In this document: piece after piece, positions 45,795 through 53,220 of the stretch
Layout: every line of letters begins with the position of its first letter
How positions within the stretch are numbered: position 1 is the stretch's first letter
Assembly: GCA_002408465.1 (NCBI GenBank)
Contig: DHSM01000022.1
Coordinates: forward strand, 81,555 to 145,554
DNA: 64,000 bases
Direction: 5' to 3'
Source: Firmicutes bacterium UBA5286
GTDB taxonomy: Bacteria > Bacillota > Proteinivoracia > UBA4975
The notes under the pieces: generated by a model
Told to the model about the DNA's origin: nothing
What the model saw: the letters and a program-made list of their open reading frames with translations, nothing else
The model's database searches: none
Position numbers and translations under genes: made by a program

Positions 45795-45871
45795 TGGCGG
45801 AGCTGACGGGAGTCGAACCCGCGATCTCCTGCGTGACAGGCAGGCATGTTAGGCCACTACACCACAGCTCC
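45795..45871 (-). tRNA. tRNA-Asp (anticodon GUC)
   Basis: Reverse complement GGAGCTGTGGTGTAGTGGCCTAACATGCCTGCCTGTCACGCAGGAGATCGCGGGTTCGACTCCCGTCAGCTCCGCCA. Confidence 0.85.
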
Positions 45872-46583: not shown

Positions 46584-46898
46584 CTAATCCTCATCTCTGT
46601 GCTTGCCTCGCCAATAGCTCAATAATTCTGCTTCAAACTGGCGCAAACTGTTTTCGGGATTGGCTGCCCTGTCTTGCAGTTTTTCTTCAATGGCTATATC
46701 CATGCGGCGAATGCTGATGCCCAAACGATCAGCCATGCTAAACAGGATGACAATTGCCGCACTGAGGGCATCAAGCACATTGTCCTCCAAGCCTCTGTAC
46801 AGACCAGAAAACAGCTCGGCGATTACCGACAGCAATTGCACCTTCAGACCCTCAATTATTTTTAGGTTGCGAGCAATATCAATGTGGTTTGCAGTCAT
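46584..46898 (-). CDS. MazG-like nucleotide pyrophosphohydrolase domain protein
   Basis: 104 aa all-alpha protein with EExxD/E-type acidic motifs (LEDNVLDAL, EEKLQDRA). The MazG/YpjD-like call is moderate. Confidence 0.5.
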   Translation of the reverse strand: MTANHIDIARNLKIIEGLKVQLLSVIAELFSGLYRGLEDNVLDALSAAIVILFSMADRLGISIRRMDIAIEEKLQDRAANPENSLRQFEAELLSYWRGKHRDED

Positions 46899-46945
46899 TT
46901 AATCCCCTCCCGGACAAAACAGGGGCAACTACTTGCCCCTTGTAT

Positions 46946-47173
46946 CTATTCCGTTGTGTATGGCATCAGAGCAATGTAGCGGGAACGCTTGATAGCCAGG
47001 GTCAACTGACGTTGATGTCCCGCACAGTTGCCGGTTATACGCCTGGGCAGGATTTTGCCCCGGTCGGAAATGAAACGCCGCAGCTTATCTGGGCTTTTAT
47101 AATCAATATGCGTAACCTTGTCTACGCAGAAACTGCATACGCGTTTGCGCTTTCTGCCTCTTTCCTTGCGCAT
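46946..47173 (-). CDS. rpsR: 30S ribosomal protein S18
   Basis: 75 aa. [31 protein letters not shown]. Confidence 0.95.
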
Positions 47174-47188
47174 CTTTTAGCCTCCAAT

Positions 47189-47587
47189 CTAAAATGGGAT
47201 ATCGTCGTCGGCGCCTGCATCAGTGCCGTACTGTTCAAAGCCGGAGTTGGCCGTGCGAGTGCTCTGCTCGCCCTTCCGGTCCAGGAAGCGGACGCTGTCT
47301 GCGATTACTTCGGTAATATACCTGCGCTGGCCATCCTGTTCATAAGTCCGCACCTGCATTCTTCCATCCACAGCCACAAGGCTGCCCTTGCCCAGATAGT
47401 TAGCACAGTTTTCCGCCTGTTTGCGCCAAACAACGATAGGGATAAAATCTGCCTCCCTTTCGCCCTCTTTATTGAGAAAGGGGCGGTCAACCGCGAGGGT
47501 AAAGGATGCCACAGGGGTTCCGGAAGGAATATACTTTAATTCCGGATCCCTCGTCAACCGGCCTATTAGAATCACCCGGTTCAACAA
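47189..47587 (-). CDS. ssb: Single-stranded DNA-binding protein
   Basis: 132 aa. [21 protein letters not shown]-fold start and the C-terminal acidic tip DDIPF. Confidence 0.95.
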
Positions 47588-47607
47588 AAAATCATCTCCC
47601 CTCCAAA

Positions 47608-47895
47608 CTATTCATCTACCCGAACAATGATATGCCTGAGAATTCCCTCGGTTATCTTGATGACACGATCCAGCTCGGCTACCACCTGAGGAGTGCCCTC
47701 AAAATGTAGCTCGATGTAGTTCCCATCGCTGAAATCAGCGATTTCGTAGGCAAGATGCCGTTTTCCCCATTGTTTTACTTCGCCCACCTGGCCACCCTGT
47801 TCGCCAATGATGGCAGCGACTTTTTCCTGAAGGCCATTAATCTGTTCCTCATCCAAGTCGGGCTGGACAATGTACAGCATTTCATATTTGCGCAT
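47608..47895 (-). CDS. rpsF: 30S ribosomal protein S6 (start at MRKYEM; GGAGGAGG RBS 9 nt upstream)
   Basis: [17 protein letters not shown] is a canonical S6 start. The track ORF begins 3 codons earlier at an ATG abutting the RBS. Confidence 0.95.
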
Positions 47896-47959
47896 ATCTT
47901 TCACCTCCTCCTATGGACTAGCGGCTTCAACGGACGTTGAAGCAGGGGGACAATTAAAT

Positions 47960-47987
47960 ATTATAACACAAAGACCTGCACATGCAA
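47960..47987 (-). promoter_or_regulatory. rpsF operon sigma-A promoter: -35 TTGCAT, 16-bp spacer, extended -10 TGtTATAAT (copy A of the 34-bp repeat)
   Basis: The minus-strand sequence aacTTGCATgtgcaggtctttgTGtTATAATatt lies about 65-95 bp upstream of the rpsF ATG. The rpsF 5'UTR also contains a stem-loop gcttcaacg-tcc-gttgaagc. Confidence 0.6.
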
Positions 47988-47994
47988 GTTAACC
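47961..47994. repeat. 34-bp perfect direct repeat copy A (ttataacacaaagacctgcacatgcaagttaacc), left boundary of the AT-rich islet
   Basis: Identical 34-mer found at 49948-49981, read directly from the sequence. Confidence 0.9.
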
Positions 47995-48091
47995 CCAACT
48001 TTACAGTTTAAAACCCACAGCAAGATATGCTCCCCCTAAGGTTGACAAACGAAATAATATAACCGTCTGAAGATTGAAGGAGGAAGTTTTT

Positions 48092-48169
48092 TTGTCCAGG
48101 AATAGGTTCAGCCATTCTATATTAGGCAGCCAATGGTGTTGTGAATATCGGTTCTATTATCGGCAATAA
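48092..48169 (+). CDS. Possible 25-aa small ORF (TTG start, strong GAAGGAGGA RBS 7 nt upstream): MSRNRFSHSILGSQWCCEYRFYYRQ
   Basis: RBS at 48076-48084. Frame read manually to the TAA at 48167-48169. A TTGACA hexamer sits at 48042-48047. No family. Confidence 0.2.
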   Translation: MSRNRFSHSILGSQWCCEYRFYYRQ

Positions 48170-48613
48170 TAGGACTTATTAGGAAGATTGTCGGAGTTTC
48201 AGGGCAGAATTCCCCTCAGGGGGTGTTTACATCGTATTTTGGGTGTGTTACATTAAGGTCAAGAGAAGTGACAAACGGTCACGTGAAGTATTGTCAGGTC
48301 AAAAGAGAATAATATTTGCAAGGGACGGTTTTTGGGGGCTAATTACCATGTTACCGCATGTTAATTAGCTAGAGGTTTTTGATATGAAGTGATACCGAAA
48401 TCCATTTAGCTATCTGGATTTTGAGGTCGACAGCAATCTTTTGGGTTAGTAGCCAGAAATAACTCAACAGCATTTACCATCTCCTTTCCCCGTCCCTGCA
48501 AATTTATTCTATCAGCGAATTTTGGGACATGCAAGCTTGTTTACACTTTACTTTAGCTTCTGAGATTCCGGCTTGCTTTGGACACAGATATCTGCTATAC
48601 TTTTCCTTCAATG

Positions 48614-48637
48614 GGACGCCTCAGGGCGTTTTTTTTT
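48614..48637 (+). terminator. Plus-strand intrinsic terminator inside the islet (GGACGCCtcaGGGCGUU plus U9)
   Basis: The hairpin gacgcc-tca-gggcgt is followed by nine T. This implies a plus-strand transcript across 48040-48637, where no ORF of 60 aa or longer exists. Confidence 0.5.
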
Positions 48638-48752
48638 GCCTGAACCCCTTTCTCGTCAGGTCTTCTTGCTTATAATAGCTTCTCGCGGAGTTGTTTTTAA
48701 CGCCTTTTTTTAATAATTTTTTTTCAAAAAGTGCTTACAGAATTTAATTATC

Positions 48753-49358
48753 CTATGTAATTATCTGTTTATTATGTTGTGCTTTGCCTTCCTTCTTTTG
48801 GTATCTCTCGACGAGCCTATCTATTTGGATGCCTTCCAGTATCTCTGAGATTTCTTTGTATTGGTAGTTTGTGCTGAACTTCTCCACGGCTGCTGTAGCC
48901 CATACCATGAGCGCAACAACGATCGCTGAGACTGTCAAGAAGAATAGGAGAATGTTTCCTGCTAGGTTTCCGCTGAAGTAACCTTTTAAGAGTTCAACTA
49001 TGAGCCAGCTGTAGCCTGGTAGGACTATTACGCCAATCGCTGCTGTGATCTTATTTAGAAGGTTTTTTGAATCTGCACTTCTTTTCCTTGTCAAGTTTGC
49101 TAATTCCTGAAGGTCTTTTTGTGTGAAGTTTCTTTGGTTGATTTCTTCCCGGAAATTTTGGAGCCTTATTTCTTTGGCCTGGATTCTATATGTGTAGAGG
49201 ACCATTGCGATGATTGGTAGTTGAATGATAATACCTTTTTTAATTAGGTCCCATGTAACTGCTGTTGTGATAATCAAGGTGACGAAGAAGATGATAAATT
49301 CTTTCAGGTTTCCTTTTCCTTTGTAGAGTTCGAGTAGGGAGTTTTCTCTTGGATTCAA
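48753..49358 (-). CDS. Hypothetical membrane protein, four TM helices in two pairs separated by a charged cytoplasmic linker (TTG start, GGAGG RBS); sole long ORF of the islet
   Basis: 201 aa. TM pairs at about 22-57 and 108-160. K/N/I-rich. No recognised family. Confidence 0.55.
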   Translation of the reverse strand: MNPRENSLLELYKGKGNLKEFIIFFVTLIITTAVTWDLIKKGIIIQLPIIAMVLYTYRIQAKEIRLQNFREEINQRNFTQKDLQELANLTRKRSADSKNLLNKITAAIGVIVLPGYSWLIVELLKGYFSGNLAGNILLFFLTVSAIVVALMVWATAAVEKFSTNYQYKEISEILEGIQIDRLVERYQKKEGKAQHNKQIIT

Positions 49359-49861
49359 TTTGATCGCCTCCGTTCTGGGTTGATTATATTTTGGTGGAGC
49401 AGTTGTGTCAATTCTGAAGTAGGGATAAGTTCATCAGGTTATTTGATACATCATCTTGGCCAAGGGTATCACCAAAATATAGCGGGCTTCCAGACGCTTC
49501 TTCTCCAGGCGAAGGCCCGAATCTTTGTTTAGGAAATCTATTAAGGTGCTTTCCTTAGCAGTGATCCGGCTGGCCGCAGGTCTTGGGGACACCCGCCCGG
49601 GGACCTCTGGGGTGGCCATAACCCGAGGCTATATTGGGGGACTCGCCCTGAGCAAGGTTAGAATTCCTTGGCAGATTCTACGCCATTCAATTATAGTTAT
49701 GGATGAATGACTTATTCTGTAGATGTAACTCGTTTCTGGCTGTTCTACACTCCCACCTGATCCTGGCCAATCAACCTATTTATCGCTTCGCACGGCCCGT
49801 GTTCCTGTTTTTGTCTTCTGTTCCCCTGAACCTAGCATGAAGTTCTCAGGTTTTTGCTAGG

Positions 49862-49890
49862 TGAAAAAAAACGCAGAAATCTGCGTGCTT
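49862..49890 (-). terminator. Minus-strand intrinsic terminator (CGCAGAuuuCUGCG plus U8) about 55 nt downstream of the predicted promoter-copy-B start site (about 50-80 nt, since the start site is a prediction)
   Basis: Plus strand gtgaaaaaaaaCGCAGAaatCTGCGtg. On the minus strand this reads as a hairpin followed by UUUUUUUU. Confidence 0.5.
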
Positions 49891-49946
49891 AAAGCGTTTA
49901 TTGATTGTCAACATGGCCGTTCTGATAGACTAACTGTAAAAGTCGG

Positions 49947-49974
49947 GTTATAACACAAAGACCTGCACATGCAA
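49947..49974 (-). promoter_or_regulatory. Second copy (B) of the rpsF promoter: -35 TTGCAT, 16-bp spacer, TGtTATAAC; oriented toward the islet interior
   Basis: Part of the 34-bp repeat copy B. The -10 differs by one base because the base just outside the repeat differs from copy A. Confidence 0.5.
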
Positions 49975-49981
49975 GTTAACC
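49948..49981. repeat. 34-bp perfect direct repeat copy B, right boundary of the islet, 5 bp downstream of the DUF951 gene stop
   Basis: Identical to 47961-47994. Confidence 0.9.
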
Positions 49982-50164
49982 AGGCGACAAAACTTTGCGG
50001 ATGGATTTTTCAGCTTGCTTGCGGGGCAAGAGAATGCTGCGGCCGCAGTTGCAGCACTGAAAGCGGAAATCCATCCCCACCCGCACTATCTTCCACTGAT
50101 TGGCCCCGCAGGGATGGGGCTTTTTTAATTGGACAATATCTCCGGGAATGTAGATTGCACCCAC
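49976..50164 (-). CDS. yyzM: DUF951 family small protein (YyzM-like)
   Basis: 62 aa. KKPHPCGANQWKIVRVGMDFRFQCCNCGR matches the DUF951 Cys pattern. Conserved origin-region position between the ribosomal S6 operon and yyaD/yyaC. Confidence 0.65.
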   Translation of the reverse strand: MGAIYIPGDIVQLKKPHPCGANQWKIVRVGMDFRFQCCNCGRSILLPRKQAEKSIRKVLSPG

Positions 50165-50167
50165 CTC

Positions 50168-50755
50168 CTATAAAACAAATAGGGCCAGGAAATGCACCAG
50201 GGCCTGTACCAATGGGCTCAACAAGCTGGCCAGCCAGGACTCCCCCACAGCAGTTGCCAGCATTGCGCCAGCCTTGCCCAGGACCAGAACTGGTGCCATG
50301 GCCAAGAAATAAATCGCTGTCACAAGCCCGCCAGTCAATCCCGCCGCTACGCCCCAAGCTCCCGAAACGGACATTCTTGGCTTTGCCAGCAGCCTGAATG
50401 CAGTCAGCAGCGTCAGCATTAAAAAACATAAGGCAGCTATATTGACAGCTAAAGCGATTAGGCGCGGTAAATTTTCTCCTGCCGTCGTCTCAATTGTCAG
50501 GACATCTTGCCAGGGCCCCAATAAAGGCGAGGCTGCTCCTGCCGGCATTGCCAAAGTTTCAAAGCCCGCAACGAAAATTGACTCCAGCCGTGGACGGAGA
50601 TAAACGGCACAATTGTCGGCAAAAGGCAAAGAGACCAGCAAAGCCCCCACCAGCACGAGCAACCTAGCCAGGGCCCGCTTCAAGCCCGCAAGATATCCTG
50701 TCACCGCGCCCCAGACAACTACACCAGTCAGCAAAAGGTCGAGCCATGGAAACAT
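50168..50755 (-). CDS. CvpA-like (colicin V production family) membrane protein, tentative
   Basis: 195 aa. M..WLDLLL..VVVWGAVTGYLAGLKRAL N-terminus and four TM helices resemble CvpA. Weak call. Confidence 0.4.
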   Translation of the reverse strand: MFPWLDLLLTGVVVWGAVTGYLAGLKRALARLLVLVGALLVSLPFADNCAVYLRPRLESIFVAGFETLAMPAGAASPLLGPWQDVLTIETTAGENLPRLIALAVNIAALCFLMLTLLTAFRLLAKPRMSVSGAWGVAAGLTGGLVTAIYFLAMAPVLVLGKAGAMLATAVGESWLASLLSPLVQALVHFLALFVL

Positions 50756-52833: not shown

Positions 52834-53220
52834 TTATTTTGCTGGCTTATCTTTATCGGGAAGAGGCTGATTTTGCCCTTGCATTTTGCATGCGCCGTGG
52901 AATACCGCGCCGTCGCCAATGGCGAGCTTGGCAACAGTGATATCTCCGTAGAGTTTGCCCGAGGGTTCAATTTCTAGAACACCTGTAGACTCAATATTGC
53001 CGCGAATGGTTCCGGCAATGGAAATGCTGCGGCACTTAATCTCAGCCTCTACTAAGCCGCTGGCGGCAACAATAATATCGCCATTGGTGTTGAGTTTGCC
53101 GGTAATCTTTCCTTCTACCCTCAGTATCCCCTTTGCCTCAACGGTCCCATTAATAACTGTCTCTTTGCCGATAATGGTATCTATTTTCGTGGTGTCGATT
53201 TCTTCCTTCTTGCTAAACAT
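52834..53220 (-). CDS. Bactofilin (polymer-forming cytoskeletal protein, DUF583)
   Basis: 128 aa of beta-helical repeats (GTVEAKGILRVEGKITGKL..., GTIRGNIESTGVLEIEPSGKLYGDITV). Confidence 0.8.
   Translation of the reverse strand: MFSKKEEIDTTKIDTIIGKETVINGTVEAKGILRVEGKITGKLNTNGDIIVAASGLVEAEIKCRSISIAGTIRGNIESTGVLEIEPSGKLYGDITVAKLAIGDGAVFHGACKMQGQNQPLPDKDKPAK

Follow-up and report, generated by a model that had tools for sequence, protein, structure and literature searches.

A strain-variable islet between DUF951 and rpsF, bounded by perfect 34-bp direct repeats, as a candidate transposon-like cassette with an unusually long target duplication

How did an AT-rich segment that carries no recombinase gene come to lie between two exact copies of a 34-bp sequence in front of rpsF? 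The question is raised by a 64-kb stretch of DNA from an uncultured fermenter bacterium, which was analysed over its whole length and is called the window here. Two exact copies of the 34-mer TTATAACACAAAGACCTGCACATGCAAGTTAACC are present in the window (47961-47994 and 49948-49981; spacing 1987), in agreement with the perfect direct repeats reported in the initial annotation. No further matches with up to three mismatches were found in the 64 kb, and none is expected by chance. The copies enclose a cassette of 1,953 bp (47995-49947, without assigned strand) of which the presence or absence varies between strains. One copy adjoins rpsF, encoding ribosomal protein S6 (47608-47895; PF01250), and the other the DUF951 gene (49976-50164; PF06107 was detected on the identical gene in L008, L014 and L016). 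Both host genes are located on the minus strand, which corrects the earlier description, and the two copies of the duplication are read on that strand as well. The sharp drop in GC that had been noticed between the copies was borne out by calculation: the GC content of the interior is 0.418 versus 0.512 for the window, and no other 2-kb stretch of the window is as low. The sole gene of the interior, ORF201, has a GC of 0.399 and a GC3 of 0.46, which is below every one of 44 long host ORFs.

The initial annotation had proposed to look in close relatives for an empty site with one 34-bp copy, and such sites were found. In L010-L014, L016 and L018 the cassette was missing precisely and a single 34-mer was retained; in L011, L014 and L016 the flanks were 100% identical to those of the filled strain over about 10.3 kb. 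The site was also empty in a strain that has diverged by 1% (L010/L012), in the contigs with an identical 34-mer (L070-L075) and in four neighbouring species, in which the DUF951-rpsF spacer is compact (about 93-105 bp). A search for the 34-mer in JGI/ENA metagenome contigs added one more empty allele. As strains with identical flanks, the 1%-diverged strain, L070-L075 and all sister species have empty sites, the insert is a recent gain that is restricted to one lineage. In the sister species one of these 34 positions is different, which implies that sequence conservation alone does not impose identity on the two copies.

The opposite polarity would require an ancestral segment, or the product of local decay (for instance a degraded ychF region), that was deleted independently in all other lineages. 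Repeats of 34 bp could well give rise to such deletions, and the distribution of the alleles described below calls for at least one homoplasy or recombination event. However, all outgroups, from 1% divergence to other species, have the compact spacer, the composition of the segment is foreign, its repeats are perfect and its six frames are devoid of ychF or other gene remnants (Pfam search). This reading is effectively refuted and is given very little credence. The statement that ychF normally occupies this position does not apply to the present lineage. In the nearest four species DUF951 directly precedes rpsF at the short distance given above, so the absence of ychF is unrelated to the islet. 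A chimeric join at a repeated k-mer has also to be considered, because short-k assemblies break at the repeat: L005 coincides exactly with the unit from repeat to repeat, and L003 stops at 47940. Nevertheless, contigs span the filled arrangement in several assemblies that are independent and come from different pipelines (MEGAHIT k127, SPAdes-style NODE contigs, JGI), and the empty arrangement is spanned in the same way, which leaves an assembly artefact a next to negligible probability.

Strains that are otherwise all but identical differ in the state of the site, and this variation is seen in several metagenome data sets, from fermentation and other sources, with samples drawn from three accession series. 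Both alleles are contained in samples of PRJNA260163 (runs SRR1561990-SRR1562008), ERZ7240xx and ERZ272830xx. The interior itself is near-invariant, the SNPs among filled contigs being two singletons, both in low-coverage contigs. The flanking SNPs fail the four-gamete test, as the filled or empty state is incongruent with them. This points to later loss, re-insertion or recombination. In about 62 contigs (some 24 of this species, filled or empty, and some 38 of sister lineages) no larger or different element was present at the site. There is no indication that insertion targets this site, as had been suggested: one element in one sub-lineage is the only occupant found.

What was duplicated is part of the control region of rpsF. 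The 34-mer spans the DUF951 stop codon, the conserved rpsF -35 and five of the six bases of the -10. Together with the T at 47960, the copy adjoining rpsF forms the full putative rpsF promoter, CTTGCA ... TGTTATAAT, and keeps TATAAT. The copy adjoining DUF951 holds the stop codon of that gene (49976-49978) and its -10 reads TATAAC. The promoter was assigned because CTTGCA...TGTTATAAT is invariant in five related lineages; a simple consensus promoter scan did not flag it, since its -35 matches at only three of six positions. The claim that the duplicated core is the promoter of the S6 operon is supported in so far as the 34-mer overlaps a conserved, probable rpsF promoter.

The only long ORF of the islet had been described as a four-TM membrane protein. 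ORF201 (48753-49358, minus strand; 201 aa, TTG start, GGAGG ribosome-binding site) is indeed predicted to be an all-helical membrane protein, and four hydrophobic segments can be read off its sequence. Its homologues among 1.84 billion representatives are restricted to P0002 (76%), P0014 (32%) and P0015, which makes it an orphan family, and it matched no family in Pfam, PHROG, PADLOC or NCBIfam. An AlphaFold model based on a 4-sequence alignment reached a pLDDT of 55. ORF201 is a gene under selection, with a dN/dS of 0.21 against the copy in L017. The contig that carries the distant homologue P0014 is only 927 bp long and its context is uninformative. For ORF201 and the small ORFs of the islet taken together, nothing significant was obtained from Pfam, PHROGs, PADLOC and NCBIfam (best match HetE-N, E = 0.0036, under the cut-off).

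ORF201 is preceded by a sigma-70 consensus promoter, TTGACA-17-TATAAT (49383-49411, minus strand; 12/12 matches), that would drive it towards rpsF, and upstream of this promoter by a conserved element that contains a hairpin (49440-49545, minus strand) and is common to the sole other locus with an ORF201 homologue. At that locus, L017, the whole module of hairpin element, promoter and ORF has a DNA identity of 82%, but its surroundings are unrelated and the ends found here are missing. The element is therefore a mosaic of ends and passenger. The neighbours of the homologue in L017 have no Pfam families, and a conserved 34-nt stretch of the hairpin element had no match in viral contigs. An intrinsic-terminator-like hairpin followed by T8 (49871-49886, minus strand) is situated 60-75 nt inside the DUF951-side end, where it would be expected to terminate transcripts that arrive from DUF951 or start at the duplicated promoter copy. 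A second terminator-like hairpin with T9 (48613-48640, plus strand) closes an apparently non-coding segment of 0.6 kb (48060-48645; fold z-score -3.0). Between ORF201 and rpsF no strong terminator was seen. Rfam identified no family on the islet at gathering or permissive thresholds, and folding of 49412-49870 in either strand revealed no excess of structure.

The absence of a recombinase from the islet was confirmed: a six-frame Pfam search of the interior detected no integrase, transposase or resolvase. Comparison of the islet with mobile-element sequences, which had also been proposed, yielded no match for the interior (blastn) or for ORF201 (tblastn) in 50,697 phage and 72,556 plasmid records. 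The inverted repeats noted just inside the direct repeats are present as well. The left one, CCCCAACTTTACAGTT (47993-48008, plus strand), has its first 2 nt inside the duplication, and the right one, CCCGACTTTTACAGTT, is the reverse complement of 49932-49947 (minus strand). The terminal 16 nt match at 13 of 16 positions (16 of 19 if TAACCC is counted), and a repeat scan returned an inner inverted repeat of 19 nt with 84% complementarity. A score of 13/16 was reached by only 0.015% of 20,000 random position pairs with offsets of up to 3 allowed (P about 1.5e-4). Both repeats adjoin the duplication directly, at its inner edges. Further inward the two ends have GTTGACAA in common, but this resemblance was not significant (P about 0.1). 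A small off-centre inverted repeat, ACCTGCA-CA-TGCAAGT (7-2-7), also lies within the 34-mer; symmetry between the ends of the 34-mer was limited to 4/7 and not significant. Other copies of the element or of its terminal repeats were absent from the rest of the window and from 77 fetched loci. The terminal motif is CCCSAMYTTTACAGTT. In viral contigs the pattern of the terminal repeats had five single matches, none with an inverted partner, which is approximately the chance level as roughly estimated from the degeneracy of the pattern and a guessed collection size.

The composition of the islet is thus foreign, its ends bear inverted repeats and mobility genes are missing; a foreign, mobile origin is supported. 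The reading that is favoured, with about even confidence, is that of a transposon-like cassette that is non-autonomous and duplicated an unusually long target when it inserted. Such a cassette would consist of imperfect terminal inverted repeats of 16-19 bp around one membrane-protein gene equipped with a promoter, and would depend on a trans-acting transposase whose gene lies at another place in the genome or on the delivery vector. It may have arrived in the DUF951-rpsF spacer of one sub-lineage by staggered cuts 34 bp apart, or 26-34 bp apart if the TAACC/TTA bases are part of the ends. Gap repair would then have copied the target on both sides, so that both 34-bp copies are perfect. Because the duplication covers the -35 and 5/6 of the -10, the promoter copy next to rpsF would have been regenerated intact (TATAAT), and an insertion in the control region of an essential operon would be tolerated. 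The TATAAC copy would face the terminator inside the element, and ORF201 would be transcribed from its own consensus promoter. Later precise loss through the 34-bp repeats, by recombination or slippage, is proposed as the reason that the state of the site does not track the flanking SNPs. Against this reading it can be said that the inverted repeats at the ends are imperfect and of little length, that the element and its ends are single-copy, with no others in the rest of the window or the 77 loci and none above chance level in viral contigs, that no cognate transposase came to light, and that a 34-bp duplication is far beyond the usual 2-14 bp. So neat a duplication of a promoter could reflect a site-specific system instead.

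In the initial annotation the repeats were interpreted as attL and attR with integrase arm sites. According to this view the islet is a site-specific integrative element without recombinase, either CIME-like or a decayed integrative mobilizable element: a circle of 1,987 bp, with a 34-bp attachment site equal to the chromosomal site, would be integrated and excised by a tyrosine integrase in trans. In streptococci, integrative and mobilizable elements are reported to attach at the ends or promoters of ribosomal-protein genes, and decayed derivatives without integrase are reported to be common. The islet shares with such elements the chromosomal-core direct repeats, the missing recombinase and the adjacent ribosomal-protein gene. 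The precise single-copy empty site and the incongruence of the alleles with flanking SNPs, as expected of reversible integration and excision, fit too, and the small inverted repeat within the 34-mer core may do so. However, no integrase was found in the element, among the genes within about 6 kb on each side (Pfam) or among ten further ORFs of the window, and no cognate element occupied the site in the contigs examined, although L070-L075 have the identical 34-mer. Nor did the 34-mer match any of 2.9 million viral contigs or the GTDB representative genomes. The inverted repeats are terminal and abut the duplication like transposon ends, and are not core sites around an overlap of 6-8 bp; the internal inverted repeat has a spacer of only 2 bp; and an identity of 34/34 would need an attachment site on the element that exactly matches this strain. 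As no cognate element was seen at the site, an att/CIME origin is the weaker rival and is judged unlikely. The hypothetical junction of a circle or tandem would read, on the plus strand, ...AACTGTAAAAGTCGGG + 34-mer + CCAACTTTACAGTT.... The repeat-to-repeat contig L005 would be produced by a k=31 assembly graph in any case. An element exploiting dif/Xer was rejected by eye, the 34-mer being unlike dif sequences.

Among described phenomena, 'insertion with long target duplication' (Nobusato/Furuta/Kobayashi) is close to what is seen here. It concerns restriction-modification gene units in Helicobacter, Haemophilus, Thermus and others that have no mobility genes and are flanked by duplications exceeding 30 bp (several published examples measure 46-47 bp; PMC2853133). 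The islet is likewise a small foreign unit of atypical GC without a mobility gene that varies between near-identical strains; at below 20 kb, and absent from a related genome with one target copy, it falls within the size definition of the class, in which the duplication may also overlap the 3' end of the upstream gene. A transposase-independent event of this kind, in which repair or replication at a staggered or resected chromosomal break took up a linear piece of foreign DNA and 34 bp were duplicated, is consistent with the defining features of strain-dependent presence, duplication length and lack of mobility genes (PMC2853133), and with an element that is single-copy and has no detected partner. 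The terminal inverted repeats would then be incidental or relics of an earlier vehicle. Yet this leaves the inverted repeats at the junctions (P about 1.5e-4), which the class does not require, unexplained; the cargo is a membrane protein and neither a restriction-modification system, by which the class was originally defined, nor a break-making nuclease; and the class itself has no known mechanism. Such a capture is considered rather improbable.

For the transposon-like reading, precedents exist among insertion sequences. Members of IS1634/IS1549 have a size of 1.5-2 kb, an end consensus C-----YT and target duplications of 8-514 bp (PMC2266710), and IS1630 duplicates 19-26 bp (PMC2853133). 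Like these, the islet ends in inverted repeats and has duplicated tens of bp of its target, and its 1.95 kb is in the range of the IS1634 family. Its ends fit the loose C-----YT consensus, but this fit is weak, since it concerns three positions and an IS701-like consensus does about equally well; the ends cannot be assigned to a family. In contrast to these insertion sequences, the islet is single-copy and has no transposase gene or remnant. The targets that IS1630 duplicates hold inverted repeats, as does the 34-mer. A passenger gene between inverted repeats, the lack of a transposase and presumed mobilization in trans are shared with mobile insertion cassettes and cargo MITEs, such as MIC231 of Bacillus cereus, which is mobilized by IS231A. 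Known cassettes of this type duplicate short stretches, of about 10-12 bp, and their partner insertion sequence has been identified, whereas the present one has a 34-bp duplication and no identified partner.

Casposons, too, have terminal inverted repeats and a duplication longer than that of classical transposons, set in their case by a ruler-type integrase, but they are large and encode Cas1 and a polymerase, neither of which is present here. Their duplications measure 13-15 bp (PMC8464041). An origin of the casposon or CRISPR type was rejected on account of this difference in length, the missing Cas1 and the absence of CRISPR-type repeats or arrays from the window. That the cassette was inserted by an uncharacterized integrase or transposase, which by means of a molecular ruler cuts the target strands about 34 bp apart, is a speculative and improbable reading.

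Within the field of bacterial gene mobility, long target duplications are still poorly understood, and neither for IS1634/IS1549 nor for 'insertion with long target duplication' is there an accepted mechanism (PMC2266710, PMC2853133). The present case is unusually clean in its perfect 34-bp copies, terminal inverted repeats and near-invariant interior. The insert lies in the promoter of an essential ribosomal-protein operon that appears to be repaired by the duplication itself. As a natural system the locus could reveal, through read sets that already exist, whether the element still inserts or is excised and in what intermediate form, and it adds an orphan yet selected membrane-protein gene to the known mobile cargo. 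If the islet was no more than a one-off capture, it would be a tidy example of how foreign genes enter the core genome without damage. If a ruler enzyme does exist, its measure of about 34 bp would be similar to that of a CRISPR repeat and more than twice the casposon duplication. It would copy a whole promoter with each insertion, a 'promoter-regenerating' safe-harbour strategy by which the element could become established in front of essential operons with high expression, within their control regions, while its host survives, leaving behind repeats long enough for clean later excision.

The 34-mer TTATAACACAAAGACCTGCACATGCAAGTTAACC occurred in exactly two copies in the window, at 47961-47994 and 49948-49981; a third copy was not found there with up to three mismatches allowed, nor would chance be expected to produce one. 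The intervening 1,953 bp (47995-49947, the islet) had a GC content of 0.418 versus 0.512 for the window and formed the lowest-GC 2-kb stretch within the 64 kb. At the inner edges of the repeats lie inverted copies of 16 bases each, CCCCAACTTTACAGTT and CCCGACTTTTACAGTT, which match at 13 of 16 positions (16 of 19 with TAACCC counted in). A 13/16 match was reached by only 0.015% of 20,000 random position pairs, with offsets of ±3 on each side, and past these terminal inverted repeats the likeness between the two ends was not significant. A six-frame Pfam search of the whole interior revealed no transposase, integrase or resolvase and no ychF-derived sequence. The feature is real, and the core of the initial annotation holds: the islet in the rpsF promoter is foreign, bounded by repeats and free of a recombinase, and relatives have empty sites. 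The annotation's statement that ychF normally holds this position is wrong for the lineage: ychF was at the position in no relative and its absence is therefore unrelated to the islet.

The one long ORF of the islet, ORF201 (201 aa; 48753-49358, minus strand), had a GC of 0.399 and a GC3 of 0.46, both below those of all 44 long ORFs of the window. The ORF is preceded by a GGAGG ribosome-binding site and a perfect TTGACA-17-TATAAT promoter (49411-49383, minus). Its product has four hydrophobic segments and was predicted to be all-helical, although the model was poor (pLDDT 55). With 5.8 billion clustered and 1.84 billion representative proteins searched, ORF201 proved to be almost an orphan: its only relatives were a 76%-identical fragment (P0002), a full-length protein of 32% identity (P0014) and a further, short fragment (P0015). 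Comparison with the P0002 gene gave a dN/dS of 0.21 over 108 codons, and ORF201 is therefore a real gene under selection. ORF-by-ORF searches of the islet with Pfam, PHROGs, PADLOC and NCBIfam were empty, Rfam gave no match on it, and phage and plasmid collections yielded none with blastn or tblastn. ORF201 itself contains, at 49108-49122, a 13/15 match in inverted orientation to the ACACAAAGACCTGCA part of the 34-mer, which by a rough estimate is borderline against chance.

The contig carrying the P0002 gene (L017, GC about 0.40) showed 82% DNA identity to window 48813-49542, plus a 45-bp match to about 49588. The shared block consists of a hairpin element, the promoter and the ORF, and neither the ends of the islet nor its other 1.1 kb were found in L017. 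This implies that the islet is a mosaic, in which a passenger module lies between unrelated terminal segments. The hairpin element, about 70 nt long with the conserved hairpin UCGGGCCUUCG...CGUCUGGA (49440-49545, minus), is situated 45-110 nt upstream of the ORF201 promoter and occurs twice in L017 (914-983 and 1816-1886), the only other ORF201 locus, where it flanks the gene. Its three copies show one compensatory change of a base pair besides several wobble changes, and it could serve as a repeated element in regulation or recombination. A terminator-like hairpin with T8 is present 60-75 nt inside the DUF951-side end (49886-49871, minus), and a strong one (48613-48640, plus) closes a 0.6-kb apparently non-coding segment; between ORF201 and rpsF no strong minus-strand terminator was found. 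This segment (48060-48645, plus) folds somewhat better than shuffled sequences (z = -3.0), matched no Rfam family and starts with AGGAGG (48079-48084), a strong ribosome-binding site, and a 25-codon TTG ORF (48092-48169, MSRNRFSHSILGSQWCCEYRFYYRQ). It may encode a small RNA or a small peptide in convergent orientation to ORF201.

An exact RpsF protein look-up in public assemblies yielded contigs from several projects on fermentation and other metagenomes. Seven (L001-L004, L008, L009 and L015) contained the islet with both 34-mer copies. The empty site to be sought in close relatives was present in L010-L014 and L016, where just a single 34-mer is found and the DUF951 gene lies 93 bp upstream of rpsF; L011, L014 and L016 were 100% identical to the window across about 10.3 kb of shared flanks. 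One more empty allele, L018 (1,674 bp), came from scanning metagenomes for the 34-mer. It showed 94.6% identity on the rpsF side and 99.2% on the DUF951 side (versus window 46733-47994 and 49948-50345), and the shift falls at the conserved spacer, as a sign of either a breakpoint of recombination or a chimera formed at low coverage (2.5). Also empty were the strain represented by L010 and L012 (0.7-1.3% diverged), about 38 contigs with three other RpsF variants, and the four nearest GTDB species (UBA5496, UBA5509, AS09scLD_363 and SBF912). The islet is therefore a derived, recent gain in one sub-lineage. The 34-mer was identical in some of the empty lineages (L070-L075) and differed by one base in the sister species. 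Local decay and an assembly artefact are both effectively excluded as sources of the islet. Among strains otherwise identical to the window, the tRNA Thr-Phe-Asp-Glu-Lys cluster (window 45795, 45959) has a variable neighbourhood: L014 (7101-7140) has 38 extra bp at 45795, and L013 (6937-10288) continues past tRNA-Lys into a different region with tRNA-Leu, a 369-aa lipoprotein-like ORF, trigger factor and ClpP, which suggests either a rearrangement or two tRNA loci joined in assembly.

The filled contigs fell into two flank haplotypes. L002, L004 and L015 were identical to the window, and L001, L003, L008 and L009 differed at 52864, 50668 and 50618, where they carry the alleles of the diverged empty strain; empty L011, L013, L014 and L016 have the window's alleles. 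Hence all four combinations of SNP and insertion state are present, each class in more than one independent assembly, although these are metagenome consensus contigs and phasing is not certain. To fit a single tree, the islet must have been lost precisely or been inserted twice at one place, or the flanks must have undergone homologous recombination within 0.6-2.9 kb of the site. The islet interior was invariant save for two singletons in low-coverage contigs. It is possible that the 34-mers are attachment sites of a CIME-like element, the attL/attR reading originally proposed, which would neatly explain reversible presence and absence. However, no other element or integrase was found at the site in any examined contig, the 34-mer was absent from viral contigs and GTDB representative genomes, and the inverted repeats are terminal, not core-type. 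Moreover, the perfect 34/34 match would have to be coincidental, unless the same lineage had hosted earlier cycles of the element. Attachment-site recombination is thus not the best supported reading.

The islet interrupts the spacer between the DUF951 gene (49976-50164, minus), whose stop codon lies within the right-hand 34-mer copy, and rpsF (47608-47895, minus), which is followed by ssb, rpsR, a MazG-like gene and rplI. Alignment of this spacer from five lineages revealed two invariant motifs, CTTGCA and, 16-17 bp downstream of it, TGTTATAAT, as well as a hairpin-containing leader that is strongly conserved up to the rpsF start. The two motifs are evidently the rpsF promoter with an extended -10; since its -35 matches only 3/6, a consensus scan did not list it, and the assignment comes from conservation and position. 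The 34-mer starts with the last two DUF951 codons (GGT TAA), includes the -35 and stops at the fifth base of the -10. In the filled site the base that follows the rpsF-side copy is T, which keeps TATAAT, and the one that follows the DUF951-side copy is the element's C, which gives TATAAC. The leader (47905-47960, minus; TGTCCCCCTGCTTCAAC-N5-GTTGAAGCCGCTAGTCCATAGGAGGAGGTG; at about 4945-5000 in contigs L019-L022) is almost invariant across lineages with RpsF proteins just 75-96% identical, matched no Rfam family at E <= 10 and is presumably autoregulatory. Antisense to it, a promoter-like site TTGAAG-16-TATTAT (9/12; 47937-47964, plus) is directed into the islet's left end, and would be directed into DUF951 in the empty allele.

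The inverted repeats exactly at the ends, the perfect duplication that is single-copy in the empty site, and the lack of an internal recombinase point to a transposon-type event, in which staggered cuts at the target and their repair would have made the 34-bp duplication during insertion, rather than to recombination of pre-existing identical sites. As the element has no transposase, we infer that it was mobilised in trans, as mobile insertion cassettes are; a trans-acting partner was not found in the window or the contigs examined. Insertion into the promoter of an essential operon would have been survived for the simple reason that the long duplication regenerates the promoter beside rpsF. 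Preferential targeting of the site, as had been suggested, was not supported by any evidence. Usual target duplications are 2-14 bp, far shorter than 34 bp. Longer ones are documented, however: IS1549 and IS1634 make duplications of 8-514 bp and belong to a family of elements 1.5-2 kb in length, whose loose end consensus is C-----YT (PMC2266710). Both islet ends satisfy C-----YT, which is weak evidence as an IS701-type consensus fits about equally. IS1630 makes duplications of 19-26 bp, and Furuta et al. described mobility-gene-free 'insertions with long target duplication' (>30 bp) of unknown mechanism, for example duplications of 46-47 bp that overlap the 3' end of the upstream gene (PMC2853133). 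Transposase-independent capture at a break fits this Kobayashi class but leaves the terminal repeats unexplained.

We classify the islet as a combination of known kinds: a non-autonomous element that carries cargo between inverted repeats, joined with a long target duplication. The islet is an orphan in single copy for which no enzyme was found, yet as a case of an insertion mode that is poorly understood it is unusually clean and is polymorphic in nature, and existing read data make a direct test possible.
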